Shown one piece after another: positions 36,096 to 51,290 of a DNA stretch of 64,000 nt. Numbering within the stretch: position 1 is the first letter of the stretch; each line of letters begins with the position of its first letter. The stretch covers positions 65,177 through 129,176 of the forward strand of contig JAUIMI010000002.1 of assembly GCA_030433255.1 (NCBI GenBank), given 5' to 3'. The position numbers were made by a program, and so were the translations under genes. Under the pieces are notes generated by a model that was not told the DNA's origin, did no database searches, and was given only the letters and a program-made list of their open reading frames with translations. Source of the DNA: a bacterium (GTDB lineage Bacteria > Patescibacteriota > Minisyncoccia > Phycocordibacterales > UBA1006).

Positions 36096-37946
36096 TTAAT
36101 TTACAAATTCAGTGTCTTCTGTGCTTGCTTTAAATTCTTCTTTTGCTTTTTTAATAGAAAGAACTTGCGCTGGGTCAGAGGTAATAATTTGATCTTCAGT
36201 GTATGAAGCAATAATTTTTACCGCAACATGTTTTAATCCAGCAAAGAATATTCCTTCCCCAACACTTGATTCAATAAGAAGATATTTTTCTTCATCAGTA
36301 AGTCGGAAAATTTCTTGAAGATTATCAACAGAACTTGGAGATTGTTTCAAGAGAAGTTGCATAGAAGAGTTTGTAATAATTGGCACACCATATTTTGATT
36401 TAATAAAATCACCAACGTCTTGAGTAATCGTAGATAGACCGAGGAAGTATTTACGTCCACGTTTTGCAATCATAAACAAGAATGATGCTGTATCATCAGA
36501 TTTCATCATCCACCATGCCTCATCAACAACAAGGAGTCGTTTTTTAAGATTTTTACGAACCGCATTCCAGATAAATGCTGTAATAATATACATTGCGGCT
36601 GGTTTAAGGTCGTCTTCCATATCTCGGATTGAAAATACAACAAGTTTTTTATTGATATCAACATTTGATGGTTTGTTAATAAAACCTGACCATGTACCAC
36701 GGGTGTATTTAGTAAGACGAGTTAGTAATGATTCACTTCCATCCATTGACGAAAGAATCATCTCAAAATCAGACATTAGTGGTGGTTCAATTTGTGAGTA
36801 GTCCGAATTCGGGGTTATATCCTTGAGTGCATATGTTTCAGTAATAGCTCTGTCGATAACAGAATCTTCTTCTGGTGTTAATCCACCTAACATAATTCTA
36901 AACAAACCAACGAGGTGAATAATATGTGTCCGCAAAACATCAGCAGGATCTTCATCAGAGAGAGGTGTTGGTACATCAAAAGGGTTAATATGATGCTCTG
37001 ATGATAGTGAGATATTAAAATACCGTCCTCCTACAGCTTCTGCAAGATATTCGTACTCACGTTCAGGATCAATAACAATCACTTCAGTATCAAACATCAT
37101 AGTCCGTAAAATCTCTAGTTTAGTAGCATATGATTTTCCTGCACCAGAGGTAGCAAAAGTCACTGAATTGTAGTTAGGGAGTGAATACCTATCAAAAATA
37201 ACTAAACCTGAATTATGTCTATTAATACCATAGAGGATACCTTTATTATCAGTAAGTTCTGATGAGATAAAAGGAAAGAATGACGAGACAGGACCTGTGT
37301 TGAGTTTTGTGTGTACTTGGAGCTTATCATCCCCTATTGGAGCAACTGACATAAATCCTTCCATTTGTTGGAAAAGAGCCGGTTTTAAATAAATAAGTTT
37401 AGATTCCAGAAGAGAACGAATTTCATTTTCTGTTTTAAATAACTCATCCTCATCTTCTGCATAGATAGTAATATACAACCCAACAGAAAATATTTTTTCT
37501 TGAGCTTGTTGCAATGAATCACGTAATTGTTCTAAATCTCTATACGCAGTATCTAAAATAGGATCTCGTACTAACCCTTTTGATTCACGAAGGTTTATTT
37601 GAGATTGTACTTCAGCTACTTTTTTCTTAAACTCAGAGAGGATTTTTTCTGTTGGGATAGGGTGTACATGAATCCCAATATCAAATACCTTGTCCAAGTT
37701 TACAATAGGAGCTAGCCATCCATCTGTTAAGAATCGAGGGTACGACATTACAAAAAAAGTTCGTGAAGTTTTCCCTGCAATTTTAATTGATTTAGAACTA
37801 ATCTCTAATGCTGCCGGTGCTAAAATATCACGTAATTGTAATTTTGCAGTACGATATATTTCTCCTGGAAGAACAGGAACAGCTGTTTTTTTAATTTTTT
37901 CGTTTTCAGGTTTTGTTGTCCCTAATAAATCTGTAAATAATGACAT
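36096..37946 (-). CDS. VirB4-family type IV secretion ATPase, C-terminal ATPase body (Tn916 Orf16 / TcpF / PrgJ-like)
   Basis: Walker A ATSGAGKSYATK; Walker B VVDEAWWMM (the DEAW that is typical of VirB4); RGRKYF...TQ motifs. The N-terminal region SRTFFVMSYPRFLTDGWLAPIVNL...IHVHPI matches the pre-ATPase domain of Gram-positive VirB4s. Confidence 0.65.
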   Translation of the reverse strand: MSLFTDLLGTTKPENEKIKKTAVPVLPGEIYRTAKLQLRDILAPAALEISSKSIKIAGKTSRTFFVMSYPRFLTDGWLAPIVNLDKVFDIGIHVHPIPTEKILSEFKKKVAEVQSQINLRESKGLVRDPILDTAYRDLEQLRDSLQQAQEKIFSVGLYITIYAEDEDELFKTENEIRSLLESKLIYLKPALFQQMEGFMSVAPIGDDKLQVHTKLNTGPVSSFFPFISSELTDNKGILYGINRHNSGLVIFDRYSLPNYNSVTFATSGAGKSYATKLEILRTMMFDTEVIVIDPEREYEYLAEAVGGRYFNISLSSEHHINPFDVPTPLSDEDPADVLRTHIIHLVGLFRIMLGGLTPEEDSVIDRAITETYALKDITPNSDYSQIEPPLMSDFEMILSSMDGSESLLTRLTKYTRGTWSGFINKPSNVDINKKLVVFSIRDMEDDLKPAAMYIITAFIWNAVRKNLKKRLLVVDEAWWMMKSDDTASFLFMIAKRGRKYFLGLSTITQDVGDFIKSKYGVPIITNSSMQLLLKQSPSSVDNLQEIFRLTDEEKYLLIESSVGEGIFFAGLKHVAVKIIASYTEDQIITSDPAQVLSIKKAKEEFKASTEDTEFVN

Positions 37947-38023
37947 AACTACTTATAGTATACTACATTCAGTATAATTGATTAATTTTTTTTATGAAAA
38001 AACCTTGAGTAATCTCAAGGTTT

Positions 38024-39673
38024 TTAAAAATCAACAAGTCGGTAAGACCACAAAAATTCAGTTGTTTTATCGATAAAGTAAAGGTATTCATTTTTTTCAT
38101 CAATATCTATAAACTCTACATCAATTGATTCATTATAATCAGTGTTAATATCTGTAATGACTGTTTCTTCTAGTGTTTCTACGTCAATTTTCCATAATGA
38201 ATCTGTATATGTTTCAAGTCCTTGATACCAAATATCAGGATATTCTTCTCCATATGCCATTGAATTTGGAACAGCGCAATATAAATACTTACTATCACTT
38301 GTCCACACACATTTTTCAACAAAGGTTTGGATAGTTAATGGTCGTGTTCTATTAGAGTCTCTGTTGTGGATTGATAAACGTGTTGAGCTATCAATTGATT
38401 CCATAACAAGAACATTTTCATTGTCTGGGCTTCCTAGTGATGTTAACCCTTTTCGTTCCTTTAATGATTTAAAATAACGGCCAGTATCAGCATTGAGTTG
38501 GTAGCTAAACCCATCTGCAGCATAACTTGGTTTTGTGGTAATTTCTATTGAATCAATATTATTCCATGAAGCTAACCATTCAGAGAATGGAGATTCAAAA
38601 ATCGTTTCTTTGGTTTCATTTACAAGGCTTCTAATAATACCAACAACACCAGCAGCATCTTTTTGCAAATAGAACACCTCTTCACCATTTGGGTTTATTG
38701 TAATTTGGGTAATATTTTGTGGTAAGAAAAATCCAGAGATTTTATATTTATGTTCAAGTTGTTCAAATGCTTCTTTTGCAATTCTTTCTTGTTGTATGTT
38801 ACACACCTCAAGCATTTTTGCGCGAGTTCCTGGTCCTATGGTCCCATCGATATCAATTTGATATAAACTTTGGAAATTTTTAATTCCGGTTATAGTTGCT
38901 TCAGTTGCAAGAGATGATTCGTTTCCAGGAGAGTTGATTCCAGAACGTGCAATACGTGTTTGGGGAATCCTATTTAAAAATTGATGTAGTTCAATCACAT
39001 CTTTGCTATCATCACCCACTTCCACATTAACAAACTCAAATGGGCAAGGTTCAATAGAGAGAGCTAATTTTTCAATATTTGCTAGATATGTTTCAGGTAC
39101 ACGCTCTTCTTTGTTCCAGTATTGAAAGAGCGCTCTATTACCATTTTTATTGAAATAAGCGTATTCTGCATTTGGTATAAAGTTTTCAACCAATAATTCA
39201 CTCTCAATTTCTGAAGGTGTTACTTTTGATTCATGGATATTAGCATTTGCAATCTCACTATAACGAACGTATTGATTTTCAACATCAATCACCTTGATTG
39301 TTTGCAATGTATTACCTTCTTCATCAATCTCAATATCAGTTACCTCCTTTTCTTCAGTTCGAATTATTGGTGTAAATCCTCCAGTTGGGAAATTACTGAT
39401 TTGTCGTAGTCGTGGACCTTCTACTTCTGGTTCGGTTATATCAACAGTTTCCTGTCCTCCATTTTCAGGATCTTCTCCTCCGAGTGTTCCTTGGTTGTTT
39501 CCACTTGGATTTTGTCCGGTATTGATTATTTCACCAAAAGGAAAAAGGTTTTGTGCCGTTTCAGTTACCTCAGTTCGTTCTTCTTGATTAAGAAAAACAA
39601 AAAACCAAATCCCAGCAATTACAAGAATAAGAATGATTATTGCAATAATTATTTTCCGAGTATTAAGCTTCAT
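38024..39673 (-). CDS. membrane-anchored protein with a peptidoglycan-binding-like domain
   Basis: N-terminal TM; LHQFLNRIPQT...ITGIKNFQSLYQIDIDGTIGPGTRAKM resembles PG_binding_1; 549 aa. Confidence 0.4.
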   Translation of the reverse strand: MKLNTRKIIIAIIILILVIAGIWFFVFLNQEERTEVTETAQNLFPFGEIINTGQNPSGNNQGTLGGEDPENGGQETVDITEPEVEGPRLRQISNFPTGGFTPIIRTEEKEVTDIEIDEEGNTLQTIKVIDVENQYVRYSEIANANIHESKVTPSEIESELLVENFIPNAEYAYFNKNGNRALFQYWNKEERVPETYLANIEKLALSIEPCPFEFVNVEVGDDSKDVIELHQFLNRIPQTRIARSGINSPGNESSLATEATITGIKNFQSLYQIDIDGTIGPGTRAKMLEVCNIQQERIAKEAFEQLEHKYKISGFFLPQNITQITINPNGEEVFYLQKDAAGVVGIIRSLVNETKETIFESPFSEWLASWNNIDSIEITTKPSYAADGFSYQLNADTGRYFKSLKERKGLTSLGSPDNENVLVMESIDSSTRLSIHNRDSNRTRPLTIQTFVEKCVWTSDSKYLYCAVPNSMAYGEEYPDIWYQGLETYTDSLWKIDVETLEETVITDINTDYNESIDVEFIDIDEKNEYLYFIDKTTEFLWSYRLVDF

Positions 39674-39907
39674 AAATGTACCTCTAGTATATCACTTTTT
39701 CTTTTTTCAAACGAAAAAAGAAACAAAAAAGTTTCCAAATTCATGGTTACTTTCTTAAAAATATAGCTCATGTACTATAATTTTAAAACTCGCTTCGCTC
39801 AAACATTAAAATTATTACGTACATATCACGTCATTTTTATAGAAAATAACCATAGATTTGAAATAAAAATAAAGTGCTCGCTTTCGCTCGTACTCTACAA
39901 TCTAAAA

Positions 39908-39936
39908 TAAAAAACAACTACCTAGTTGTTTTTTAT
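39908..39936. terminator. intrinsic terminator
   Basis: ACAACTA-cc-TAGTTGT plus T-run. Confidence 0.45.
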
Positions 39937-42047
39937 AATGTTAATGATTCTGTTACCTTATCATAAACTGAGAAATGCCAGTTTGTAGCATGGGTTACAT
40001 ATTTAATCATACATTTATCAATACCCCTGTTGAATAATTCATTTTGCATGCTTTCATAAGCAGATTGAGATTGTTGATTTGAAAATTCGAACTGAGCAGT
40101 TAAACCATTTTCATCAGCAGTTTTTATTATTTTTTCTACAGTATCAACATTATATTGAGCATTTTGCGTTGCAAGGTCTATACAAGAACCTAAATAATGA
40201 CATGGTGACCCATGACCCAGGAATGATGGACCAAAAGCTTCTGTAACACGCGTACTTATGTTTTGTGATTCTAGTGCATTATTAAAATTAATAATTTTTT
40301 GAGCAAAAGAAGACTCAACGTTATTTTGTATACTTGTTCCTTGAGGTGTTCCAGTATCTAAGTTTATTCCATTACCTTCAAGAGAACTTAAATTACCTCC
40401 TTGAGCCACTTGTTGTATTGTTGCAAGTTTATGTGTTGTTTGTCCTTTCCAATACCCTCTATGTTTTCTATTGTTACATATTTGTGTAGCAGGTGCGTTT
40501 GATACTGATAAGTTGGTACCATCACCATCAACTTGTGCTGGGTCTTCTACAATATTAATACTTACTTCTTCAATACCTTGTCCGAAATTAATTTCAAGCA
40601 ATTTCGGATTAATAGTTTTAAGGATAAGGAATATTCCTAATGCCAAAATAAGACCGGTTACTGCACTCATGATTCGTTTCTTTGCGGCACCTTTTGAGTA
40701 TATAGCTTCTGTTGTCATATATTCTACCCCAGCAACTACAATCATAATAACTGAAAGAACCATCAATACACCAAGAGCAATATTAAATAGTGATTGAATA
40801 TATTCACCTAATTGGAAATCTTTTAAATTTCTAATTGCAACTCTTTGTACGTTTCCATTTCCATCCACGACAGTTTCAACGTCACCAGACTGAGAGGTGA
40901 ATCCAGGAATAGGTGCTAGAAATTCGTAACAATTATCGCTATAACCTTCTGATTGGCTAATAAAACAAGGGCTATTTACATCATATGTTGGTTGTTGTGT
41001 TTGAGTGTATTGTGCCGAAGAACTTCCGTTTGAGTTTGTTGAACCCACTAGATTACTATTAATTCTTTGCCACTCAATATTATCACATCCATTTGGCCCA
41101 CAACGAAAATTTATAGCATTTTCATTATTTGGTGTATCTATTACATCATTATCATATTTTTTTATTTTTATACCTGGTAAATTTTCAGAACTTACTCGTA
41201 CAATTGCACCATAGGTACATGAATCAACTCCATCTGTTGAGCCAGTACAATCAGTATCTCCAGGTATATAGGTATTTTTTATTTCAGTTTCTCCTTGTGG
41301 AAGTTTTCCTTCATAACGAGCTTCTTCTGCTTCTTCATCTGCCCCATCATAATCCCATATTTCAACCGTAAATATAATTTCAGAAGCACAGTTGTTTGTT
41401 TGTATGTTTAATTTAACGTCAGATTGTTGCTCTGGGTTTAAAAAAGGTGTTGATGATTCATTTTGTGTACCATGTGGGACAAACGTAACATCTGTAATTT
41501 GACAGTTGTTAAGTAATGTTTGTGTTTGGTTTGCATTATAATTTCCGGTTACGCTAATTACTTCAAATTCTTGTTCCTCATCACAGTCCCCACATGTAGT
41601 CTCAAGTCGAGCTGCGTTTATTTCTGCATCGGTATTAAAAAAAGAAGATGTACCTTCTGGATCTGATGAAAGATTTTGTAGGTAAGCGGATTCAAAGGTT
41701 ACATAATACAAACAATTCTCATCGTCACAATATTCATTTCCAGGTTTAAAAGTAACAACAAGTGGTTCATTCGTTGAATTAAATTGATATCCATATTGTT
41801 CAAAAACATTATCGTCAACACCTCCACTTTCATCTTCCTCAATTATCAGAGTAAATGGTACTCCATCACATTGCCCGTTTTGATTAACATGTAGTTGTAT
41901 TGTTGAGTCTGGAGTAAGTTGACCTGATGGTTTTTCAAAGTAAATACTCTCAATTTGACAATTTTCTTGAGCAAAAATAGTTTGACTTCCAAATCCTCCA
42001 AAAACAAAAAGAGTAATAAATAAAATAGATTTAAGTAGTTGTTTCAT
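39933..42047 (-). CDS. secreted 704-aa protein with an internal VirB2/TrbC-like two-TM hairpin and a C-terminal Cys/His domain
   Basis: Signal peptide; FNIALGVLMVLSVIMIVVAGVEYM - basic loop SKGAAKKR - IMSAVTGLILALGIFLILK is a pilin-like hairpin; the C-terminus is GHGSPCHYLGSC... Confidence 0.4.
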   Translation of the reverse strand: MKQLLKSILFITLFVFGGFGSQTIFAQENCQIESIYFEKPSGQLTPDSTIQLHVNQNGQCDGVPFTLIIEEDESGGVDDNVFEQYGYQFNSTNEPLVVTFKPGNEYCDDENCLYYVTFESAYLQNLSSDPEGTSSFFNTDAEINAARLETTCGDCDEEQEFEVISVTGNYNANQTQTLLNNCQITDVTFVPHGTQNESSTPFLNPEQQSDVKLNIQTNNCASEIIFTVEIWDYDGADEEAEEARYEGKLPQGETEIKNTYIPGDTDCTGSTDGVDSCTYGAIVRVSSENLPGIKIKKYDNDVIDTPNNENAINFRCGPNGCDNIEWQRINSNLVGSTNSNGSSSAQYTQTQQPTYDVNSPCFISQSEGYSDNCYEFLAPIPGFTSQSGDVETVVDGNGNVQRVAIRNLKDFQLGEYIQSLFNIALGVLMVLSVIMIVVAGVEYMTTEAIYSKGAAKKRIMSAVTGLILALGIFLILKTINPKLLEINFGQGIEEVSINIVEDPAQVDGDGTNLSVSNAPATQICNNRKHRGYWKGQTTHKLATIQQVAQGGNLSSLEGNGINLDTGTPQGTSIQNNVESSFAQKIINFNNALESQNISTRVTEAFGPSFLGHGSPCHYLGSCIDLATQNAQYNVDTVEKIIKTADENGLTAQFEFSNQQSQSAYESMQNELFNRGIDKCMIKYVTHATNWHFSVYDKVTESLTL

Positions 42048-42109
42048 GTTGTTATTATAATATGTTTACTCTTTGATATAAAGTCGTAAAAATAAAAACA
42101 CCCTTTTGT

Positions 42110-43132
42110 TTAGAGTGTTTTTGGGTTAAATACCAGTTCTAAGTTTGCTTGAGATTTTTGTAATAACTTCTCAATCCCTTCTAGTGCAATATTTATATCA
42201 ACCGCACCAGCTTCTCCTCCTGATGTTATATATAACTCATTTTGTTTTTCAAAATCTTGTGGTGGCTGAGGGTTGTTATTAATACTCCAGTTTACAAACA
42301 GATCTATAAAATTAGGCTGAACCGATGACATGTATAATGGATGGAACGATAGTTTAACGGTATCACCATTAATAACATTATTAGTATTAAGCGCTTTATT
42401 TGTCATAAGCCTATCACCATTGAACTCATAAAAGAGAATTTTAGGTTTATATACATCTGTTGGAATATCAATAGTATTTGTAGCAAATGAGTTTTCACGT
42501 CTATCATTTGAAGTAACAGTAATTTTTTCATTTACTCCTAATGGGTCAGCGGTAAACTCAAATGATTGCTTCCCAAAACCTGATCCTGATTGTTGTCTCG
42601 TATAATTTCTGTCCCAATAATAAATAAGATTTGGTGCATCAGATGGTTCAATAAGTAGTGTTTCTGGTATAGCGGTGATTTTAATTTGGGATTGTTGCAT
42701 AGGAAGTGCCTTTCCTTTGTAAAAAGGTGGAACATAAGCATCAGTTACCTCCCACAGCAGGTTTACCTGTGATGGAGCAAAACGTAACTCTTTTCTAAAA
42801 ACTTGATTCTCGTATTCGACAACAGCTGTAATGTTCGTCACTTCTCCAGAATTACCTGTCGTAAAAATATAATCACGGTTACCATAATCAGCTGACTTTC
42901 TTTCTCCGTTTTCAAACCACGCAATGTAATAGTTATTAAGATTGAAACTATAACTATTAAGTTTTAGTTTTACCTCTTCGTTTGGTCCTGGTATTTTTGG
43001 TGTTGTTTCAACAAAAATATCATCAGCAGAATAGAGTTGAAAATTTTGCGCAACAGTTGTATTTGGAATTACAAAAAAGCTGAGAACCAGAACAGCAAAA
43101 ATAACTATATGATTTTTCCATACATGCAACAT
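42110..43132 (-). CDS. membrane-anchored secreted protein, possible VirB8/TcpC-like component
   Basis: N-terminal TM followed by a 300-aa extracytoplasmic domain. Assigned by position within the cluster only. Confidence 0.3.
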   Translation of the reverse strand: MLHVWKNHIVIFAVLVLSFFVIPNTTVAQNFQLYSADDIFVETTPKIPGPNEEVKLKLNSYSFNLNNYYIAWFENGERKSADYGNRDYIFTTGNSGEVTNITAVVEYENQVFRKELRFAPSQVNLLWEVTDAYVPPFYKGKALPMQQSQIKITAIPETLLIEPSDAPNLIYYWDRNYTRQQSGSGFGKQSFEFTADPLGVNEKITVTSNDRRENSFATNTIDIPTDVYKPKILFYEFNGDRLMTNKALNTNNVINGDTVKLSFHPLYMSSVQPNFIDLFVNWSINNNPQPPQDFEKQNELYITSGGEAGAVDINIALEGIEKLLQKSQANLELVFNPKTL

Positions 43133-43195: not shown

Positions 43196-43867
43196 TTATT
43201 GTTCAAGTGTTGGAATATTTCTATGTGTTTCTCCTGGATTAAACATATTATAGAATACTTCAATGGCTTGTTCTGTGTTCAGTTGTTCGGAACGTACACC
43301 AAACCGTGATAAGCCACCTTTTACAATCGCAACACGTTGTTCTAGTTGACTTCGTTGCTCCTCAAATTTACGAGAATCTTCTTTAAATGAAGATTTTTTA
43401 GAACTCCCACCAATGAGTTCTTTTAGAATATTACCACCCTTTTTTTCTTGAGTACCAGTAAACGCACCTCCTGAGTATGGAATTACTACATAGAATTTTT
43501 TAGACATGATATTTACTGAATCAGTAAACCATTTAATAAATTCAATATACTCTTTGGTTTGTAGTCGAAGAAGTTCTTCTTGTTGTTGTTCGATTCGTCT
43601 TTCGAGTGTTAGGAGATATGGTTTTATATCATATCGACGTGATTGTACCGATATCTCAATAGGAAACTCTATTGAATTTAAAAAACCTTGGAATTGCATA
43701 ACAATTGCCTGTTGTTCATCTGGTGATTTTAGTGCGATATTGATTGCCGAAGCAAGTAGTATAGCTCGCAAACTTCCGTCTTCTAGTACGACAATACCGT
43801 CACGAATTTCTTTTACTGGAATAAAATCTTGAGTTCTTGGTCCTGTATATTTTTTAATATCTGCCAT
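43196..43867 (-). CDS. protein resembling the N-terminal domain of Gram-positive VirB4 ATPases (a split VirB4?)
   Basis: IRDGIVVLEDGSLRAILLASAINIALKSPDEQQAI...FPIEISVQSRRYDI resembles the TKDGRYVKILEV-PINF-LRS--EQ signature at the start of Tn916 Orf16/TcpF-type VirB4. Recalled from memory, no search run. Confidence 0.4.
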   Translation of the reverse strand: MADIKKYTGPRTQDFIPVKEIRDGIVVLEDGSLRAILLASAINIALKSPDEQQAIVMQFQGFLNSIEFPIEISVQSRRYDIKPYLLTLERRIEQQQEELLRLQTKEYIEFIKWFTDSVNIMSKKFYVVIPYSGGAFTGTQEKKGGNILKELIGGSSKKSSFKEDSRKFEEQRSQLEQRVAIVKGGLSRFGVRSEQLNTEQAIEVFYNMFNPGETHRNIPTLEQ

Positions 43868-43905: not shown

Positions 43906-43934
43906 ATAAAAAACTACATCATGTAGTTTTTTAG
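43906..43934. terminator. intrinsic terminator
   Basis: AACTACAT-c-ATGTAGTT plus T-run. Confidence 0.45.
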
Positions 43935-44347
43935 TTATCATCAAAATCCAAAATATCCAAACTCCAAGCTAAATCTGAAATTTTTTGATGACCATCTTCT
44001 TTTGGGAGAGCTCCTTCTTGTGGGAAGGCAGCGTGTACTTGGGTTACGTCTTGTGCACCTGGTTCTGGTTCATGCTGTCTCCATAAATAAAATTTATTTG
44101 TAAAGGTGTATACAATAAATGACTCAACCATATGAATAAAAGGTCTTCCGTTAGGTTTGTAAAATACCAAGGCAAGAGAAAAAGCCGCAATAGGTAACCC
44201 TAATAGAATAGATGCAAAACTTGGTAATAATTTATGTAGTACAAAAATCATTCCTCCTCCACCAACAAGATATAACGCCTGTTTAAAAGTAAAAGGTCCA
44301 AATAATTTGTCAGGAATATTAATAAATTGAGGTACCTCAAATCTCAT
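43931..44347 (-). CDS. PrgI/VirB3-like small two-TM protein
   Basis: N-terminal VPQFINIPDKLFGPFTFKQALYLVGGGGMIFVL matches the fGLT-RQ pattern of the PrgI family; 138 aa; immediately upstream of the VirB4-N-like ORF, as in Tn916 (orf17-orf16). Confidence 0.4.
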   Translation of the reverse strand: MRFEVPQFINIPDKLFGPFTFKQALYLVGGGGMIFVLHKLLPSFASILLGLPIAAFSLALVFYKPNGRPFIHMVESFIVYTFTNKFYLWRQHEPEPGAQDVTQVHAAFPQEGALPKEDGHQKISDLAWSLDILDFDDN

Positions 44348-44394: not shown

Positions 44395-45279
44395 CTAATC
44401 TTCTTTTGTTAAATGTTCTAAGAATGTACCTTCTTCTCGTATTTGCTCGTTTTCAGATAATGAAGCTTCTATGGTTTCTGTTTTTGCAGAGAAAGGGTTT
44501 TCCAAAATATGTTTATCAATGGTAGAAAATTCATAATCACCTTGACCTAAATCAGGAAATTGTTTTCTGGGTTTGTCTGTAAATATATCGTCAGGTGTAT
44601 TATGATGTTGTGTTTTAATAATTGAGGTGTTAGTGCGGTGTCCGGTTATTCCTCTTAAATCTTTGGTATCGATTGGTTCTTGGTATGGGTTTTGTGTGTG
44701 TTCAGGTTTTTGATTTGGCTCAGGTATATCATCTGTAATAGTTTCGGTGTGGGTGGTTTCGTGATCTTTGATATTTACCTCGTTTAAAATTGCTGATACT
44801 TCATCATGTAAATCATTGTCAAAAATACGTGGCTCAGGTTCATCTACGAGATGTACTCCTTCTGAACTTAGGATGTTTTTTAGTTCATGATGTTCAATTG
44901 GTTCTTGGTATGGATCATCTGATATTATTTCATCGTGGTTCTCGGTAGTTGTTTCATTATCAAAATTATTTTTACTAAATGCACGTTTTTGTAATTGAAG
45001 AAATATTCGAGAATTTGCTTCGTCTACTAATGAAGCTGCAAGTTGTTTTGAAAAACCGAGTTCACTTACAAGGTTATGTTCATACTGTTCTGCAGGTATT
45101 TTCCCAAGAATTACTAAGAGTGTTTGGTGCCGAAATTCGTCTGCATCGTCTATTTGCATATTGTGTTCATGAGCAATATCAAGTATTTCTTTTGCCCAAT
45201 CAAAAGTAATTACAGCATTTTTAATATTATCAGGAAGTGCTGCAATTGATTGTTGAATTTCTGCATTCGAAAGTTTCAT
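44395..45279 (-). CDS. highly acidic cytoplasmic protein with PYQEPI repeats
   Basis: 294 aa, rich in Asp and Glu; DDPYQEPIEHHELK and QNPYQEPIDTKDLR repeats. Confidence 0.35.
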   Translation of the reverse strand: MKLSNAEIQQSIAALPDNIKNAVITFDWAKEILDIAHEHNMQIDDADEFRHQTLLVILGKIPAEQYEHNLVSELGFSKQLAASLVDEANSRIFLQLQKRAFSKNNFDNETTTENHDEIISDDPYQEPIEHHELKNILSSEGVHLVDEPEPRIFDNDLHDEVSAILNEVNIKDHETTHTETITDDIPEPNQKPEHTQNPYQEPIDTKDLRGITGHRTNTSIIKTQHHNTPDDIFTDKPRKQFPDLGQGDYEFSTIDKHILENPFSAKTETIEASLSENEQIREEGTFLEHLTKED

Positions 45280-45330
45280 ATCAGTAGTATACCAAATATT
45301 ATAAGAAAAAATAAAAACCTATTTAGGTTT

Positions 45331-47637
45331 TTATTTTTTATCAGCCTCTTGAGGTTTTGCACCAACTTTACCTTCCCGTATTCTTTGAGCTGTTTTTTCA
45401 TCTTTTGTTTCGTAATCTTTAGCAACTTTTTCTCTGGCTATATTATGATTATCTTTTTCAATATTCTTAAGTCTCTCAACTTGTTTCTTGGCTGTTTGTT
45501 TTTCGAAGTCTTTTTTATCTTTTTCAAGATCAGAAAGACCATCTTCCAAAGCGGTTATATTTGCCTGAGCATAGGATGCCAGTGCTGTGTTACCTTCCGC
45601 ATTTGCTTTTGCAAAAATACGTTCTTCTTGCTTAATTTCTTTTTGTTTATCTTTAATATCCTTATCGTAGGCTTTTATAGCTTTGTCTTCAAATTGAGCT
45701 CTACTACTTCCTGCAGGAATATTTGCTACATTTCCACCGCCCATACTTGGAGGTAGTGGAGCGCCATCAATTTGCATATTTACTGTTGGCTCTGCACTAA
45801 CATTAACCACCACAGATTGTGACATTTCTTTTCGTATGTCTTTTGCAAACTGTTCAAGTGTTCGTTCTTTATCATCAATATCTGAATCAAGTTTTTGTTT
45901 CGCTAGTTTTGATTCTTCGGTTTTGATTTCTGAATTAGCATTTGTATCTTTTACTTTTTGTTTAGATTCTTCAACCTCTCTTTGCCAATCAGCAGCTGTT
46001 TTATTTTCTTTGATTTCAGTCTGCGCTTCTTCCTGAACTCGTTTTACTTTTGCAGCCTGTAGGTCAGCATATTCATTTCCTCCGCCCATAGAACCAAGTA
46101 ATGATTTACCATCACCTTCAATATGGCCAAGTAATGATTTACCTGTAACTTTTCCTGCATATTTCGCAGCGTCATCACCCATAATTGATTTTAGAACTTT
46201 ATTTCGTGTTGGGTCTATTCTTGTTGCTTGTAGGTATTTCCCATGTTCTTTAACTGCTGAACCAATAGTGCTCAACCCTTTACCATATTTACCTTTTGAT
46301 AGGTACTTTGCTCCTTGCCCTACACCTTGTGCTGCTGCTCCACCAACACGTAACCCTGTACCAACAGCTGCTGCTCCACCGGTTGCAGCGATAGCTGCTC
46401 CAGCAACAAGTGCTCCTGTAACACCCTGAATACTTCTTGTTGCCATGCTTCCTAACTCACCAGCCATTGAGGTACTTATTTTTTTTGTGAGAAATAACAA
46501 ACCACCAACAATAATAAATGGTATATAAGCCTTGAGGATGCTTTCTAATATACCTTCTCCTGGGCCTGGTTGAATAGATGCAAGGAAACCTTCATTTCCA
46601 AGAAAACTAATAACAAGGTATAGGAAAAACATATATACAGGAGCAAGAAACGCTAAGCTTATTAATTCAGGAAGCCATTTGTTAAATCCTATGTATGATT
46701 TGTTTTGTAGGCTTGGTACCACAATACTTGCAAAAGCAACAGGGGCTAATATTGCAGAAACCATTAAACCAATTGCTCTACCAACAAAAACAAGAATCAT
46801 ACTAATAAATAACCAAATGAGTAATATGTTTAATATTCCTGCTCCTGTGATGATAATAAAGGCTTGCAGTGCCCCAGAACCACTTGCGTTAACTATTTGT
46901 TGAGGATTTATTTTCCCAGCAATAGCAATCGAGAGATTTTTTGAATCTTGAGGAATAATAGATTGCGCTAGGCTAGAGAGACTACTTTCTCCTGAACCTA
47001 ACCCTTCGGTATCATTAGCTATTTGAGTAGTATCCGCATTCGTATTTGTTGCTGCTGTGTTGTATGTATTCGCTGTTGCGTCTATTTTGTTGTATAAGGT
47101 GTGCGCTAGAATATTTGACCCATCAATAATTGCATAGGTCATAAATAAACTAAAATTAATAATCAACGCTATAAGGATTGTTTTTACGAGAGTTTTTTTT
47201 GTTCCTCCATCATCGGAACCAAGAACCATTTTGAATGCTACAACTAGTAATGCAAAAATAAACACAATATTAGTAAAGTCACGTAATATTTCCCAACCAG
47301 CTTCGATAAGACCTGATCGATAGAATTGTGAATCAATTGATAGGAATATAAATATATCCAACATGACACCAATTAATACAACAACTATTTGGGTAAAATA
47401 GAAAATTATAAGTTCATAGAATGACAATAATCCTTCTGATAATTGACACCCTATTCCACTTGCACCAAAAAAACCAGTGTCACAATTAAGGTTTATAGCA
47501 TAAGCCGTATTTTCTGTTATCGAAACTATCTGTTCTCCTGATTGAATAGATTCGATATCGTTGATTCCAATACTTATAGGTAAAAGAAAAACGAGTATTC
47601 CTAATAATACTGTAATTGCTTTTTTAGATAAAAACAT
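45331..47637 (-). CDS. VirB6/TrbL-like polytopic membrane protein with a Gly/Ala-rich linker and a long charged coiled-coil C-terminus
   Basis: Signal peptide, at least six TM helices (aa 70-400), GALVAGAAIAATGGAAAVG segment, then about 300 aa of Lys/Glu-rich repeat. This architecture is like Tn916 Orf15 and TrbL. Confidence 0.45.
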   Translation of the reverse strand: MFLSKKAITVLLGILVFLLPISIGINDIESIQSGEQIVSITENTAYAINLNCDTGFFGASGIGCQLSEGLLSFYELIIFYFTQIVVVLIGVMLDIFIFLSIDSQFYRSGLIEAGWEILRDFTNIVFIFALLVVAFKMVLGSDDGGTKKTLVKTILIALIINFSLFMTYAIIDGSNILAHTLYNKIDATANTYNTAATNTNADTTQIANDTEGLGSGESSLSSLAQSIIPQDSKNLSIAIAGKINPQQIVNASGSGALQAFIIITGAGILNILLIWLFISMILVFVGRAIGLMVSAILAPVAFASIVVPSLQNKSYIGFNKWLPELISLAFLAPVYMFFLYLVISFLGNEGFLASIQPGPGEGILESILKAYIPFIIVGGLLFLTKKISTSMAGELGSMATRSIQGVTGALVAGAAIAATGGAAAVGTGLRVGGAAAQGVGQGAKYLSKGKYGKGLSTIGSAVKEHGKYLQATRIDPTRNKVLKSIMGDDAAKYAGKVTGKSLLGHIEGDGKSLLGSMGGGNEYADLQAAKVKRVQEEAQTEIKENKTAADWQREVEESKQKVKDTNANSEIKTEESKLAKQKLDSDIDDKERTLEQFAKDIRKEMSQSVVVNVSAEPTVNMQIDGAPLPPSMGGGNVANIPAGSSRAQFEDKAIKAYDKDIKDKQKEIKQEERIFAKANAEGNTALASYAQANITALEDGLSDLEKDKKDFEKQTAKKQVERLKNIEKDNHNIAREKVAKDYETKDEKTAQRIREGKVGAKPQEADKK

Positions 47638-47731
47638 GACTATATTATAGTATAGAATGATTCTTTTTCATAAAATAAAACTACCAATCTCAAAGACTGG
47701 TAGCTATGTACATAAATTATAATTCTTGAAT

Positions 47732-48115
47732 TTAATTTGAAGCGATAGTATTGTTTTGTTTTTCTATAATGTAAGATTTGATGTAATTAAGTAATAAATT
47801 AACTTTTTTATACTGAACCACTTCAACATTCTCAACATTTTTTTTATGAAAATCATTTAAAGAACTAACTAGTAAAAAATTTTCTTTTTCTTTTGTTTGA
47901 ATTCTTACATATAGTTTGTTTTCCAAAACCTTCATTTCAACTGCTGCTGCTGTTGGTTTCTCTGCAAAAACTTCACTAGTAAATTGTTGAATGTCTAATT
48001 TTGTTATTTTTTCTTGTGCGTTTACTGTATTTGTACCTAGTACAAAAGCAAACATAAATACGAAAATTAAAAATAATTTTTTCATGGTATTAAGTTTTGT
48101 GTTGCTCTTGTGCAA
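47732..48115 (-). CDS. small secreted protein (127 aa)
   Basis: Signal peptide MKKLFLIFVFMFAFVLGTNTVNA. Confidence 0.4.
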   Translation of the reverse strand: MHKSNTKLNTMKKLFLIFVFMFAFVLGTNTVNAQEKITKLDIQQFTSEVFAEKPTAAAVEMKVLENKLYVRIQTKEKENFLLVSSLNDFHKKNVENVEVVQYKKVNLLLNYIKSYIIEKQNNTIASN

Positions 48116-48236
48116 CGGTTGTGGGCATTATTGCCTATGTTTGTATAAATTATGACACACTTTTTCCAATTTTGTAAATTAAGTTATCCACAGAAATAGA
48201 ACAACTTAAAATAAAAAAACAACCATATGGTTGTTT

Positions 48237-51200
48237 TTAAATTCCAGTATTTATAACCCCCGAGAAAATTAATTGATAATCAAGATTCGATGCAGCATAC
48301 CAATTATGTCGTATACATTCTGGTTGGAAATCACTATCATCATCTCCGCCTAATCCGGTTGATCTTTGTAAATCAGAAATTCTTGGATTTCGACAGAACA
48401 AGACCCCTCTTTCACCACGAGCACGATTAAACGATGAAAAGAATCTGTCTTTTAAGAACATATCTTTAATTTCATAAGCGTTTTGTTGAATAGGCTTGAA
48501 ACCATAATCAGGATAATATCGTTGGAAATAGGCTTCTGTTTGTGGAAATTCTTGATCTTCATATTCAGGTAGCGTTGTTTCTGTACCAGGAGTTACCTGA
48601 ACGCTTACTGTTTCAATTATTGAATCATCAAAACGAAGAACACTGTTTTCAATTGCTGTTGGGCTCGCAATAACATTAGAAGTGAACACACTTTCTGTGT
48701 TTGGGTCACCATCATTTATTTTTGCATATTCATCTTCTAAAAATATTCTAATATCTTCATTGGTTCGATATGGTGTTGGGACGCCAATAAAGGTAAATCC
48801 TCCACCACCTCCACCAAACAATCCAAAGATATTACCAATAGCCAAGTATGGGTTTAAATTAAAGAGAGCTGTATTTACAATTGTTTGTTCGGTGGCAGTT
48901 GTATTAGTGTCACTACCACTAACAATAGATTGCAATTCAGAAAGATTTGCTCCAAGTGCATATGATTTCAAAACTAAACAATCACTGAGAATCTTTTCAC
49001 TCTCAACAGCACCACTATCAATACGGTTCCGATTAGCTTTTGCTCGAGCAATAAATTCATTATTAGATAAGTTACTTTGTTCAATATAGAAACCATAACG
49101 ATATTCTTCTTTTGTATCTCGTGGAGTACGATCTCGCCAAATATCCCATGCCATAGTAATAACAGCGTCACGAACACGGTTTGGGTTATTAGTTAATACA
49201 CTTGAAGTTGTTTCACCTTCTTCTATTCTAAGATTTAGATAGGTGATTGAGCTAGATCCATCAAATTTTTCAAATCCGTTTGCAGCATGTTCGGCTGCTT
49301 GTAATTTTTGAGTTGATGACAATTCATCCCATTGTGATTCATTAAGTACTAATTCACTTACATTTAATTCATTTTTATATGCATCAAATTCATCTTGAAT
49401 ATTTTGACGAATAAATTTCAAATTCAATAAGAGATTATTTAATGTTGTTATTCGTTGATCAATTTGAATACGTTCAGTTCGTGTTCCTCCAAGTAATTGA
49501 CTAAACAAGCTACGTATTCTCTCTGAGCCAGGAATATTTACAAGTGGGTCTTCAACCATTTCTTTTGTTTCAGTAAGTCCAATTTGATCAGATTCATTTC
49601 CATTAACATCAAATACGTCTTTATATCGTTGTTCCCAGTTATAATCTGGTCCAGGTAAACAACGATCTAATTCAATAGCGGTATTTTGTGACCCATCAAG
49701 AATATCTGATGCTTCGTTGTAATATCCTAATTCTTCTTCTGCAAGATGGATATTTCGTGTTAATTCTTGTCGTAAATTAATAATTACTTGTGGGCTGTTG
49801 CTCCATGCGGTGTTCCCAATATCTTCTGGTCCACCGATGAAACTGGTATCAACTGTATTACCAAAAATAGTTGATGTTGAGCTTGATGAAGATCCTGTGG
49901 CGTTCGCAATAGTGGTTGTGCTTGGGTTACTGGTAATTCCTAATACATCATATTGTGATTGATAATCAGTTACCCCAGTTGTTGCAAAGGTGTTTTGTGA
50001 TTCTTGAGGGGTAAAAAAGGTATTTACAGCAGCTCCTGTTAATTGTGATAAACCACTTTCTAATAAGCCATCAGTAAGTCGCCCTAGTGAGCTAATTAAA
50101 GGTGTCACCAATGAATCAGAAAAGAATTTCCCCTTATCTTCTTCTGATATAAGTGCGTTGTTTAATTTAGCTTCTACTTGTCCTCCTGGAGTTGCGGTTA
50201 TGATTTGTGTTCCTTCTGGGCAACTACCATCGTTAATTGAACTACCGTCAGAACATATTTTTTTGTCTAATACTTTTACTGGGGTTTGTAGGTCTTGTAC
50301 AACACTAGAAACTTTTGAAGTTGTTTTTTGACCCAGTGCTCCTTTCACGAGTGTTTGTAGTCCTGCATCATAGTTGTGTGGATCTGCTAACGCAAGATAT
50401 CCTTCCCATCCTCCAACGGTTATATCGGTTTTGAAGGCATCTTTTGCACCTTGAGAACCTAATAATTCTGTAAGTGTTTCACCTTGACCTTGGATTAACG
50501 AATCTAATGGATCAATATTTAAACGCTCTGACCCTGCTGTTGCAATAGTGGTTGCTACTGCACGTTTTGTGTTTAATTCCCCTGATTGATAGAGTTGATA
50601 GTTTTGTTCTGCAATAGCAGCAACATTACTAGCCAATTGAGATGTGTTGTCTTGGCATGCCTGTAGTGCCGAATTGTAGAGTGGTATTTGGTCTATACAT
50701 GTATCCCATGCAATTTCTTGTGCATCTCTTTCGTTTTCACACGCTTCTATTAATTCTTCATCTTCTAGGGGATCTAGTTGATATATACACCCCTCAAATT
50801 CATTTAGATATTGATCATATCTATTGGCACATGCAGCTTCTGAATTCTCAGCCAAGGGATATTGCGCATATACTTCATTTATACAAGTAAGGTTATCTAT
50901 ATCAGAATTTAGTTGTATATTATTTGCAACATTAGATGCTGTATTAAATGCATTTGAAATTACCTCATGCTCAGTTCCCTTGAGAAAATATTCCCAATTA
51001 TTTACAAATCCTGGATCTCCATCAAAGCCATTATTTGCCCAATTAATAGTATCCGAGGTGAGTTTTGTTAGTACTCGATCAGCCAATGATTTAACAACCG
51101 GCTTAAGCACATCATCTTTGGTAAATTGCCAAATTTGGTTTGCAATATTTGACGGATCATCAAGGTCTAATGCATATGCTTGTTTTGGTTGTGATAACTG

Positions 51201-51290
51201 AATAGTAAACACCATAGCAATGGCAAGTAATAAAGTAGTAATCTTTTTTATCATAGAAAAATTATACCATTCTTCTATATGAATAGACAA
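48237..51290 (-). CDS. large secreted protein (1017 aa), first gene of the T4SS-like cluster
   Basis: N-terminal signal/TM; Asn/Ser/Thr-rich; several Cys pairs. Confidence 0.45.
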   Translation of the reverse strand: MSIHIEEWYNFSMIKKITTLLLAIAMVFTIQLSQPKQAYALDLDDPSNIANQIWQFTKDDVLKPVVKSLADRVLTKLTSDTINWANNGFDGDPGFVNNWEYFLKGTEHEVISNAFNTASNVANNIQLNSDIDNLTCINEVYAQYPLAENSEAACANRYDQYLNEFEGCIYQLDPLEDEELIEACENERDAQEIAWDTCIDQIPLYNSALQACQDNTSQLASNVAAIAEQNYQLYQSGELNTKRAVATTIATAGSERLNIDPLDSLIQGQGETLTELLGSQGAKDAFKTDITVGGWEGYLALADPHNYDAGLQTLVKGALGQKTTSKVSSVVQDLQTPVKVLDKKICSDGSSINDGSCPEGTQIITATPGGQVEAKLNNALISEEDKGKFFSDSLVTPLISSLGRLTDGLLESGLSQLTGAAVNTFFTPQESQNTFATTGVTDYQSQYDVLGITSNPSTTTIANATGSSSSSTSTIFGNTVDTSFIGGPEDIGNTAWSNSPQVIINLRQELTRNIHLAEEELGYYNEASDILDGSQNTAIELDRCLPGPDYNWEQRYKDVFDVNGNESDQIGLTETKEMVEDPLVNIPGSERIRSLFSQLLGGTRTERIQIDQRITTLNNLLLNLKFIRQNIQDEFDAYKNELNVSELVLNESQWDELSSTQKLQAAEHAANGFEKFDGSSSITYLNLRIEEGETTSSVLTNNPNRVRDAVITMAWDIWRDRTPRDTKEEYRYGFYIEQSNLSNNEFIARAKANRNRIDSGAVESEKILSDCLVLKSYALGANLSELQSIVSGSDTNTTATEQTIVNTALFNLNPYLAIGNIFGLFGGGGGGFTFIGVPTPYRTNEDIRIFLEDEYAKINDGDPNTESVFTSNVIASPTAIENSVLRFDDSIIETVSVQVTPGTETTLPEYEDQEFPQTEAYFQRYYPDYGFKPIQQNAYEIKDMFLKDRFFSSFNRARGERGVLFCRNPRISDLQRSTGLGGDDDSDFQPECIRHNWYAASNLDYQLIFSGVINTGI

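Follow-up and report, generated by a model that had tools for sequence, protein, structure and literature searches.

The ten genes at positions 36096–51290 of the window (the whole stretch of DNA analysed, 64,000 nucleotides) most likely encode a type IV secretion system (T4SS) of Paceibacteria that is chromosomal and vertically inherited, is derived from the MPF-FATA conjugation machinery of monoderm bacteria, is non-conjugative and serves the epibiotic lifestyle as a conduit to the host. The source genome is of Paceibacteria (Patescibacteria/CPR) and of the reduced-genome type. The original prediction, an MPF-FATA-type T4SS domesticated for host or cell-cell interaction in a reduced-genome lineage, agrees with published conclusions (PMC12102498, PMC10633639); the T4SS finding is correct but was already published (2023–2025). 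The window contains nothing new in kind and is a well-resolved Paceibacteria example with testable details. The Patescibacteria T4SS is among the few candidate machines for host exploitation by this very large group of ultrasmall bacteria, so that correct annotation of each component matters.

Organisation and conservation of the cluster

The cluster is made up of ten co-directional open reading frames, located as first described between jag (plus strand, ending at 36086) and tig (plus strand, from 51279 or 51339). The features are:

32732–34090, minus strand: dnaA, with DnaA-box clusters on both sides
36096–37946, minus strand: g1, VirB4 ATPase body without the N-terminal domain, 616 aa
38024–39673, minus strand: g2, membrane-anchored protein with N-terminal anchor, acidic linker and PG_binding_1 insert, 549 aa
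39933–42047, minus strand: g3, mosaic VirB2-like protein, 704 aa
42110–43132, minus strand: g4, secreted or anchored beta-rich protein with a hydrophobic N-terminal segment (residues 9–27), 340 aa
43196–43867, minus strand: g5, stand-alone VirB4 N-terminal domain, TrsD-like, 223 aa
43931–44347, minus strand: g6, PrgI/VirB3-like two-TM protein, 138 aa
44395–45279, minus strand: g7, cytoplasmic protein without TM segment, 294 aa
45331–47637, minus strand: g8, polytopic membrane protein, candidate VirB6-type subunit from topology and gene position, 768 aa
47732–48115, minus strand: g9, small secreted ORF, 127 aa from a TTG start
48237–51290, minus strand: g10, large secreted Cys-rich acidic protein, 1017 aa, start codon uncertain

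Four near-consensus DnaA boxes are present in 32565–32690 and two in 34123–34171. The origin of replication, oriC, is probably the region 32565–34171. The T4SS cluster, at a distance of about 2 kb, lies inside the core origin neighbourhood, as had been proposed. The genes dnaA, dnaN, rpmH, rnpA, yidC and jag were named from their translations and from the Pfam annotations of an identical Logan contig. The GC content of the cluster (0.32–0.35) falls inside the range of the whole window (0.27–0.37), in line with the native composition noted earlier.

The same cluster is found beside jag-yidC-dnaA-dnaN in dozens of related species, in most of the loci extending that far, and all close homologues are from Patescibacteria. 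Identity decreases from 70–92% for VirB4 to about 20–40% for the surface proteins; together with the shared synteny, this gradient fits vertical inheritance. The ancestral Paceibacteria order, g8-g7-g6-g5-g1-g4-g3-g2, is collinear with prgH(VirB6)-prgI-prgJ(VirB4)-prgK(hydrolase)-prgL of pCF10. Partly conserved synteny with Tn916 had been claimed, and this holds for the ancestral order; in the present clade, however, virB4 is about 5 kb away from the N-domain gene, with three genes between, while it adjoins g5/g6 in about 60 relatives.

The ATPase, PrgI and polytopic proteins

The g1 protein matches NF045971 (VirB4-like, CD1110 family) at E 5.7e-111 and 372 bits (cutoff 325), over profile positions 183–732, and also PF19044. 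It contains a Walker A motif, SGAGKS (residues 267–272; nt 37131–37154), and a Walker B motif, LLVVDEAW (residues 471–478; nt 36513–36536), the latter including the DEAW read in the original prediction. Judged by sequence, it is assigned as an MPF-FATA-type VirB4 with both Walker motifs intact. It is 25.8% identical to PrgJ of pCF10 over 531 residues (tblastn E 1.8e-37) and 70–92% identical across the Paceibacteria loci; among the 120 best homologues listed (74–100% identity), all the named ones are Paceibacteria, Nomurabacteria or Patescibacteria. The missing N-terminal domain is encoded separately by g5, which matches NF045975 (2.5e-10), NF045971 (2.5e-7, positions 1–118) and NF041427, TrsD (1.3e-5). 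Residues 4–71 of Tn916 Orf16 can be aligned to it, and its identity is 52–86% in 80 loci. The g6 protein, with hydrophobic segments in residues 33–62, matches the PrgI family PF12666 (3.1e-8, above the gathering score), as anticipated from its two-TM pattern, and is encoded directly upstream of g5 in every locus compared. By profile, core T4SS components are recognised in g1, g5, g6 and the pilin-like hairpin of g3.

The g8 protein has a signal or TM segment, about seven TM helices (residues 61–400) and a charged coiled-coil tail of about 370 residues, and is encoded at the position equivalent to PrgH, upstream of PrgI. It has no direct Pfam or NCBIfam profile match. An AF2 model of residues 1–420 (pLDDT 81) gave no match in a Foldseek search against the PDB, and hhalign gave a probability of 29% against Tn916 Orf15, at a conserved SP.AF motif, and of 1% against PrgH. 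Three of 18 orthologues match NF045848 (conjugal transfer protein MMCAP2_0566 of a Mycoplasma ICE) over the whole profile, at sub-threshold E values of 1.4e-5 to 6e-4. Of the proposed VirB6/TrbL-like identity, the polytopic topology, the charged tail and the gene position stand, but a direct profile or PDB fold match is absent; g8 is a tentative candidate for a VirB6-type channel subunit.

Copies of the g8 gene are also present in Flavobacteriaceae chromosomes, with a small signal-peptide ORF of g9-like size upstream. They are a possible clue to the host.

The pilin-like mosaic protein

From its amino-terminus, g3 consists of a signal peptide, two Ig-like domains (residues 31–120 and 183–298), a conserved CYEFLAPIPG motif with a helical hairpin (residues 413–479, nt 40611–40811) and a zinc-peptidase domain of the LAS/VanX fold (residues 537–696 approximately, nt 39960–40439). 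Residues 413–475 match the T4SS_pilin family PF18895 at 2.5e-5 and 24.7 bits, slightly under the cutoff of 26.6. The same family is matched in 29 of 34 syntenic orthologues (best 1.8e-10) and TrbC/VirB2 in two, which bears out the VirB2-like TM hairpin of a secreted protein seen originally; the hairpin is also similar to one solved conjugative pilin. The C-terminal domain has a hedgehog/DD-peptidase fold with the H-x(3-6)-D plus His zinc-ligand pattern and two invariant cysteines, C616 and C622, around the metal-site motif, and Pfam has no model that detects it. A LAS-type domain ends the pilin-like protein in six of ten representatives sampled. Among the orthologues the last domain is exchanged for other cell-wall hydrolases, with known peptidoglycan-hydrolase domains at this position in at least 19 of the 34.

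Pilins of the VirB2/TrbC type are small two-helix subunits, about 70–120 residues when mature, which polymerise into a pilus, and members of the family (TraA, TrbC) normally undergo cleavage at both termini during maturation. The g3 protein is about ten times the size of a normal VirB2 pilin. A filament of uncleaved 704-residue subunits would be sterically doubtful; instead of polymerising as a pilin, g3 may thus be a hydrolase anchored in the membrane. In such a case the hairpin would be only the membrane anchor of a VirB1/PrgK-like wall hydrolase and the system a pilus-less channel of the Gram-positive type, which we consider possible but less likely than not. The length of g3, its globular domains at both extracytoplasmic ends and the hydrolase cassettes at the carboxy-terminus of most orthologues are consistent with this; in Gram-positive T4SSs, hydrolases such as PrgK carry a TM anchor and their genes immediately follow virB4, a placement that g3 comes close to in the ancestral order. 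The window also contains a single pilin-like gene, with no array of pilins. On the other side, the hairpin matches pilin profiles specifically and resembles a solved pilin, pilin-type cleavage of the precursor could yield both a pilin and an enzyme, and some orthologues are only 212–330 residues long. Furthermore, in a cultivated Microgenomatia parasite, which takes up host RNA, tubes towards the host have been reported that may be T4SS pili (bioRxiv 10.64898/2026.06.21.733656).

A more far-reaching reading would make the tube subunit and the wall-breaching enzyme of the Paceibacteria T4SS one modular protein, in which a conserved VirB2-like hairpin bears exchangeable, outward-facing heads, swapped among close relatives to fit the wall chemistry of different hosts; the heads would be Ig-like domains at the amino-terminus and LAS/VanY, NlpC/P60, SLT, YkuD or Amidase_5 cassettes at the carboxy-terminus. 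Jointly, the Flavobacteriaceae g8 copies, with their small upstream ORF, would be footprints of gene flow from epibiont to host and would indicate that marine Flavobacteriaceae are hosts for the present lineage. Taken as a whole, this reading is unlikely; if it were true, host range could be predicted from the genome by the type of cassette.

The remaining cluster proteins

The g2 protein has one TM segment (residues 8–26) and a PG_binding_1 insert (residues 238–287, nt 38813–38962; E 1.3e-3), a domain matched in five of 24 orthologues, at best with 1.7e-8; the TM-anchored protein with a PG-binding domain described at the outset is thus recovered. Its conserved Trp/Tyr-rich extracellular domain is probably a beta-propeller, with a weak match to Peptidase_S9_N, and no sequence match was found in the PDB. 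The location of g2 corresponds to that of PrgL (VirB8-like) in pCF10. No VirB8/TcpC-like protein was found; when the g2 and g4 profiles were compared with PrgL and Orf13 by hhalign, the probability was below 1%. The g4 protein is syntenic at 25–71% identity and is probably formed by tandem Ig/PKD-like domains: its orthologues show weak matches to PKD_3, Ig_3 and Big_13, and a PDB match is absent.

In the alignment, g7 has a conserved N-terminal helical domain of about 100 residues, followed by a variable, acidic, disordered tail with the motifs DPYQEPI and NPYQEPI at positions 122 and 197. It has no Pfam (E <= 0.1) or NCBIfam match. The suggestion that it is an extremely acidic, ArdA-like DNA mimic does not hold: it contains 20.7% Asp plus Glu, with a pI of 4.6, Pfam gives no match to the ArdA domain (PF07275), and tblastn with Tn916 ArdA finds nothing in the cluster.

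For g9, the ATG of MKKLFLIF is the likelier start, preferred over the TTG. No tblastn match to g9 was obtained in 80 loci. One relative (locus L005) has a like-sized signal-peptide ORF in the corresponding gap; between g9 and the ORFs in this gap or upstream of the Flavobacteriaceae g8 copies there is no detectable sequence similarity. The g9 protein is accessory, fast-evolving and poorly conserved. The g10 protein, with a signal-like segment (residues 12–30), 12 cysteines and a pI of 4.3, has no Pfam, NCBIfam or PDB match and no recognisable domain. It is syntenic and only 21–42% identical, often over partial length, and probably belongs to the surface or the distal part of the system.

Function of the system

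In the 64-kb window, tblastn with PcfC, Orf21, PcfG, MobT and Int gave nothing below E 0.1, and when the coupling proteins, relaxases, integrase and ArdA of pCF10 and Tn916 were included as queries, only PrgJ/VirB4 was matched. In the ten unannotated flanking ORFs, a Pfam scan found only DNA polymerase III delta and no T4SS-related domain. These searches agree with the reported absence of a coupling ATPase, relaxase or recombinase from the window. Lacking a relaxase or coupling protein in its vicinity, the machine is taken not to be used for conjugation. A VirD4-like gene is likely to be present elsewhere in the genome, because such genes were found in most Patescibacteria genomes, distant from virB4 (PMC12102498).

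The host-directed role and the essentiality are adopted from the literature, the essentiality data coming from Saccharimonadia, a different class from Paceibacteria. In Southlakia epibionticum, epibiotic growth requires T4SS genes including pilins (SEML1_0006-0019; Wang et al. 2023, PMC10633639; PMC12857230). The following arrangement may be envisaged. The VirB4 ATPase g1 and the separate N-domain protein g5 would act together at the cytoplasmic membrane, docked on the VirB3-like g6 and the polytopic channel g8. We infer that this motor could pull VirB2-like hairpin subunits of g3 from the membrane into a short tube or pilus, while the LAS-type peptidase head would cut peptidoglycan stem peptides to make a path through the wall, be it the bacterium's own, that of the host, or both. 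The wall-spanning and host-contacting parts would be g2, with its PG-binding and putative propeller domains, the Ig-like g4 and the large secreted protein g10, and the whole would connect the bacterium to its host by a contact-dependent conduit, presumably for macromolecules or effectors.

It is very unlikely that the system is a DNA-uptake machine like Helicobacter ComB, as had been offered as an option, or archaeal Ced, which would bring in DNA from the host or the environment to supply nucleotides. Such systems likewise do without relaxase and coupling protein, Patescibacteria lack nucleotide synthesis, and g1 weakly matches DNA_import_CedB (5e-8, far under the cutoff); this match, however, reflects generic VirB4 similarity, and no ComB- or Ced-specific components were found. 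Southlakia cells without comEC lose competence yet remain viable, in contrast to the essential T4SS (PMC12857230), so DNA uptake by transformation is not the essential T4SS role there. Competence in Southlakia also requires type IV pili, and the window encodes PilB and a pilin as well.

An ordinary ICE or integrated plasmid, with relaxase, coupling protein and integrase outside the window, or mobilisation of the chromosome from an origin-proximal oriT, is extremely improbable: the CD1110 conjugal-transfer family of g1, the gene order similar to pCF10 and Tn916, a view confined to 64 kb and the VirD4-like genes elsewhere in Patescibacteria genomes would allow it, but the cluster lies between the core genes jag and tig, has native composition, is accompanied in the 64 kb by no integrase, element-border repeats, relaxase or coupling protein, and, in most of the species-level genomes related to this one, adjoins dnaA with the divergence typical of vertical descent, while relaxases occur in just 103 of 3,035 Patescibacteria genomes, seldom near virB4 (PMC12102498).

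Comparison with known systems

The peptidase domain of g3 belongs with the LAS zinc peptidases (VanX, VanY, LdcB, MepA and the phage Ply500 endolysin; MEROPS M15/M74). Unlike these, it escapes Pfam recognition, contains the invariant C616 and C622 and forms the carboxy-terminus of a pilin-like protein.

The Trs system of pGO1/pSK41 also has a separate small homologue of the VirB4 N-terminus, TrsD, beside the ATPase, and g5 matches its family; Trs, however, is a plasmid conjugation system with relaxase and coupling protein, whereas here three genes part the N-domain and the ATPase.

With pCF10 and Tn916 (orf17-orf13) the cluster shares, in the ancestral order, the succession of channel, VirB3-like protein, VirB4, TM-anchored wall hydrolase and TM-anchored extracellular protein, as well as the VirB4 NCBIfam family. 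In contrast to them, VirB4 is split, the hydrolase has, in place of SLT plus CHAP/NlpC, a LAS/M15-type domain joined to a pilin-like hairpin, and PcfC/Orf21, relaxase, integrase, ArdA, the adhesins PrgA/B/C and an NTF2/VirB8-like protein are absent.

Mycoplasma ICEs are mobile elements that encode a DDE transposase and a TraG/VirD4-like protein but no wall hydrolase. The neighbouring Mollicutes ICE families Mbov_0395 (pilin-like), MMCAP2_0566 (membrane protein) and Mbov_0397 (VirB4) provide the best or only NCBIfam matches of g3, of the g8 orthologues and of g1/g5, respectively, although apart from VirB4 these are sub-threshold. This suggests a pilin-like/channel/VirB4 core common to wall-less or thin-walled monoderms.

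The closest resemblance is to the T4SS of other Patescibacteria. According to the survey of Quinonero-Coronel et al. 2025 (PMC12102498), the VirB4 proteins of this group are monophyletic within MPF-FATA, TrsD, PrgI, VirB6 and VirB2-like genes lie near virB4 and, in Paceibacteria, the locus is near dnaA/dnaN/rnpA. The present cluster agrees in its MPF-FATA VirB4, the separate TrsD-like N-domain protein, PrgI/VirB3, the PF18895 VirB2-like domain, a polytopic membrane protein encoded close to virB4, a neighbourhood free of relaxase and coupling-protein genes, and its chromosomal position beside dnaA, dnaN and rnpA. It differs in the 5 kb between virB4 and trsD in this sub-clade, and in four conserved partners without a named counterpart, the extracytoplasmic or cytoplasmic g2, g4, g7 and g10, which are details added here. 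It differs also in having one large pilin-like mosaic fused to a peptidoglycan peptidase, as opposed to an array of small pilins; this fusion of a pilin-like hairpin to interchangeable peptidoglycan hydrolases takes the place of the VirB1 that the 2025 survey (PMC12102498) noted as "missing".

Organisation and genomic position of the cluster

Ten co-directional open reading frames on the minus strand, separated by short gaps, fill nucleotides 36096–51290 between jag and tig, confirming the cluster that had been recognised from the sequence. Both flanking genes are on the plus strand, with jag ending at 36086, and the cluster is transcribed from g10 towards g1.

Genes of the cluster, in window order
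g1, 36096–37946, minus strand, 616 amino acids: VirB4 ATPase
g2, 38024–39673, minus strand, 549 amino acids: membrane-anchored protein
g3, 39933–42047, minus strand, 704 amino acids: protein with pilin-like hairpin and C-terminal alpha/beta domain
g4, 42110–43132, minus strand, 340 amino acids: secreted or anchored protein
g5, 43196–43867, minus strand, 223 amino acids: TrsD-like protein
g6, 43931–44347, minus strand, 138 amino acids: PrgI-family protein
g7, 44395–45279, minus strand, 294 amino acids: protein with acidic tail
g8, 45331–47637, minus strand, 768 amino acids: polytopic membrane protein, candidate VirB6-type
g9, 47732–48115, minus strand, 127 amino acids: small secreted protein
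g10, 48237–51290, minus strand, 1017 amino acids: large secreted protein

The GC content of the cluster, 0.32–0.35, is similar to that of the rest of the window, as originally noted. Clusters of DnaA boxes are located on both sides of dnaA, at 32565–32690 (four near-consensus boxes) and 34123–34171 (two), which suggests a Firmicutes-type bipartite oriC and puts the start of the cluster some 2 kb away from this probable origin, in the core origin neighbourhood where it had been placed. A promoter and terminator scan gave sites no commoner than in shuffled sequence. Between tig and clpP, a small open reading frame (52438–52704, 88 amino acids, two transmembrane segments) has a counterpart of 78% identity in L005, one of the related loci. 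[quoted passage not shown]

Genes for a coupling protein, relaxase, integrase or ArdA were not found within the 64-kb window: tblastn with pCF10 and Tn916 proteins matched only VirB4, in line with the predicted absence of the first three. Among ten unannotated open reading frames, the sole Pfam match was DNA polymerase III delta, with none related to T4SS.

The motor module

A profile search places g1 among the CD1110-family VirB4 ATPases (E 5.7e-111, exceeding the NCBI cutoff). It aligns to positions 183–732 of the VirB4 profile only, with intact Walker A and Walker B motifs, and g5 covers the first 120 or so positions of the same VirB4 models, also matching the TrsD family. The g6 protein belongs to the PrgI family, scoring above the Pfam gathering score. 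The VirB4, PrgI and VirB2-like hairpin assignments of the original prediction are thus all upheld by profile matches, to g1, g6 and g3, respectively. Homologues of g1 number in the thousands; the best 120 of these are 74–100% identical, and the named ones among these 120 are Candidatus Paceibacteria, Pacebacteria, Nomurabacteria or Patescibacteria.

The pilin-like hairpin and its hydrolase cassette

Residues 413–475 of g3 match the T4SS_pilin hairpin (E 2.5e-5). In the AF2 model (pLDDT 72), a signal peptide is followed by two Ig-like beta-sandwiches, for which the Foldseek matches are Ig/FN3 tandems, by a helical hairpin and by a C-terminal alpha/beta domain. The hairpin, formed by helices 413–445 and 449–479 with a basic loop between them, is the VirB2-like element expected in this protein, now seen in a predicted structure. 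The region from about residue 356 to 500, containing a CYEFLAPIPG motif and the hairpin, is the only part of g3 kept across orthologues, the flanking domains being variable.

The C-terminal domain (nucleotides 39960–40439) shows a LAS/VanX fold when the model is compared with known folds. No VanY relationship emerged from sequence searches with phmmer against the PDB, with Pfam, or with hhalign against the VanY-type cassettes that orthologues carry, so the domain is identified by fold comparison only. Little or no variation is seen at residues H612, C616, H617, C622, D624, E654 and H691, and g3 residues fit the pattern H-x6-D ... H, the metal-ligand pattern of LAS enzymes as established for VanX and VanY. 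A library-wide phmmer search found the domain in 128 representative proteins, at the C-terminus of every one; in six of ten sampled representatives it is located downstream of a T4SS_pilin match, three of these being above the Pfam cutoff. The 128 representative clusters constitute an unannotated family without a Pfam model, which may deserve its own definition.

When 34 syntenic g3 orthologues are compared, a T4SS_pilin match is present in 29 and a TrbC/VirB2 match in two, and at least 19 of the 34 contain a recognised wall hydrolase C-terminal to the hairpin. The cassettes are VanY (seven), NlpC/P60 (six), Amidase_5 (two) and Peptidase_M15_4, YkuD, SLT_2 and Extensin-like_C (one each). One homologue is 51% identical across residues 1–497 and then changes abruptly to a VanY domain; the hydrolase is therefore a swappable cassette. 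A filament of uncleaved 704-residue subunits looks sterically unlikely, and it is a real, if minority, possibility that g3 is a mere hairpin-anchored hydrolase like PrgK and that a pilus is not made; VirB2-family pilins are, however, usually trimmed at both the N- and the C-terminus, and we favour g3 as a putative pilin subunit fused to a wall hydrolase.

The polytopic protein g8 and its copies in Flavobacteriaceae

The g8 protein contains a signal or transmembrane segment, about seven transmembrane helices and a charged tail of 370 residues. The window protein has no match in Pfam or NCBIfam, its 18 orthologues have none in Pfam, and a profile search of PDB sequences returned only coiled-coil noise from the charged tail. 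Residues 1–420 give a confident AF2 model (pLDDT 81, pTM 0.76), for which Foldseek found no match in the PDB. Three of the 18 orthologues match the 'MMCAP2_0566 conjugal transfer protein' model of a Mycoplasma ICE (E 1.4e-5 to 6e-4), over the transmembrane region and the whole model length, far below the cutoff, and hhalign aligns Tn916 Orf15 to g8 with a probability of 29%, at an invariant SP.AF..S..IP motif. The position of g8 upstream of prgI is compatible with a VirB6 role. Topology and position fit the proposed VirB6/TrbL likeness; by analogy a VirB6-type role is likely, and g8 is a candidate member of the VirB6 family. Searches of phage and plasmid collections gave no relatives of g8. 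A collection of 5.8 billion proteins contains g1 and g3 in exact form (P0001, P0173) but not g8, for which the best match is 54% identical; g8 may be uncalled or called differently in the source annotation.

Homologues of g8 on large Flavobacteriaceae chromosomes are 47–49% identical in the transmembrane domain and 37–41% over most of the length.

Copies of g8 in Flavobacteriaceae
L083, 10001–12181: g8 homologue of Muricauda sp. SCSIO 64092, CP095413.1, a single 5.69-Mb record
L084, 10001–12208: g8 homologue of a member of the Flavobacteriaceae, CP046177.1, 4.3 Mb

The CP095413 copy is flanked by typical Flavobacteriia genes and the CP046177 copy lies in a region of integrases, an ISL3 transposase and M23 peptidases. 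Other T4SS genes are not present beside them. Upstream of each is a small secreted open reading frame, like g9, which itself was found only in the closest relatives of the window; sequence similarity between g9 and these frames is absent. A neighbour-joining tree puts the two copies at two different points within the Paceibacteria sequences, which suggests gene transfer between this lineage and Flavobacteriaceae, and the copies may hint at the host of the lineage.

Other partners

The membrane-anchored g2 protein, predicted to have a peptidoglycan-binding domain, matches PG_binding_1 weakly, the match being strong in some orthologues (1.7e-8). The insert occurs in only five of 24 orthologues and is probably why g2 proteins of the window's clade are about 100 residues longer. 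A conserved aromatic-rich domain of g2 gives weak propeller matches, and orthologues of g4, which is secreted or anchored, give weak PKD/Ig matches; profile searches of PDB sequences with both proteins were negative. A VirB8/TcpC resemblance, a comparison proposed for g2 and g4, was not borne out, hhalign against Tn916 Orf13 and pCF10 PrgL being negative. The Cys-rich g10 protein has no match in Pfam, NCBIfam or PDB sequences. The g7 protein, without transmembrane segment, consists of a conserved N-terminal domain of about 100 residues and a variable, disordered acidic tail with repeated DPYQEPI/NPYQEPI motifs, distant orthologues terminating in DPYRE; the motif may be a short linear docking motif or a secretion signal. 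An ArdA-like DNA mimic, as g7 had tentatively been read, is rejected: Pfam and tblastn with Tn916 ArdA were negative, and the g7 alignment shows the two-part layout just described.

Conservation and gene order

Scanning one genome per species with g5 gave 219 relatives, of which 80 loci were kept, nearly all labelled Patescibacteria MAGs and a few with another or no taxonomic label. Several loci with a Paceibacteria-type cluster, L002, L003 and L008 among them, bear the record label 'Crocinitomicaceae bacterium' or 'uncultured Candidatus Saccharibacteria', probably because MAG contigs were mis-binned or mislabelled; the former label may be another sign of Flavobacteriia association. When all window proteins were compared with the 80 loci (tblastn), g1–g8 and g10 were found to co-occur beside jag-yidC-(rnpA)-dnaA-dnaN, the same cluster thus recurring in relatives. 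Identities to the window proteins are 70–92% for VirB4 (two truncated matches, 61–63%), 52–86% for the TrsD-like g5, 38–79% for PrgI, 25–71% for g4, 25–60% for g2, 26–49% for g8 and 21–42% for g10, a fall from VirB4 to surface proteins that would be expected under vertical descent with faster surface evolution.

More distant genomes usually have the order g10-g8-g7-g6-g5-g1-g4-g3-g2. The window's sub-clade (including L002, L003, L005 and L007–L009) has g5-g4-g3-g2-g1, versus g5-g1-g4-g3-g2 in most related genomes (L013–L080). Judging from these orders, virB4 has been relocated behind g2, to the far end, in the sub-clade, so that 5 kb separates the ATPase gene from g5, which codes for the N-terminal domain.

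Proposed mechanism and comparison with known systems

A VirB4/TrsD/PrgI motor module, a hairpin protein with wall peptidase, a polytopic partner and several extracytoplasmic partners are present, all of them conserved by vertical descent at the origin, and genes for DNA processing are absent there. In the proposed mechanism, VirB4 would dock onto PrgI and g8 and pull g3 hairpins out of the membrane into a short tube, the peptidase head of g3 would open the peptidoglycan, and g2, g4 and g10 would bridge the wall and touch the host. The cargo might be exported effectors, or imported host RNA or other material. Published work on other Patescibacteria indicates that such a machine is required for epibiotic growth (PMC10633639) and may extend tubes towards the host (2026 preprint).

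This kind of system is already known. In a survey of 3,035 Patescibacteria genomes, VirB4 was present in 2,417 and relaxases in only 103; most of the VirB4 proteins form one monophyletic clade nested in MPF-FATA, with TrsD, PrgI/VirB3, VirB6 and VirB2-like pilin genes near virB4 and VirD4-like genes mostly far from it, and in Paceibacteria and Microgenomatia the T4SS adjoins dnaA, dnaN and rnpA (Quinonero-Coronel et al. 2025, PMC12102498). In the saccharibacterium Southlakia epibionticum, T4SS genes including pilins are essential for epibiotic growth by Tn-seq (Wang et al. 2023, PMC10633639); a comEC deletion there is tolerated, from which natural transformation is not the essential role (2025 review, PMC12857230). 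A cultivated Microgenomatia parasite is reported to extend tubular structures, maybe T4SS pili, towards its host and to take up host RNA (2026 preprint). Since these accounts match it, the original interpretation, a domesticated non-conjugative T4SS for host or cell-cell interaction, is correct but of low novelty (PMC12102498, PMC10633639). New in detail are the pilin-hydrolase cassette architecture, the virB4 relocation and a group of conserved partners without names; the fusion is not mentioned in PMC12102498, where VirB1 homologues are scarce and virB4-linked mainly in Paceibacteria. The ancestral Paceibacteria order is collinear with prgH (VirB6-like), prgI, prgJ (VirB4), prgK (anchored wall hydrolase) and prgL of pCF10.
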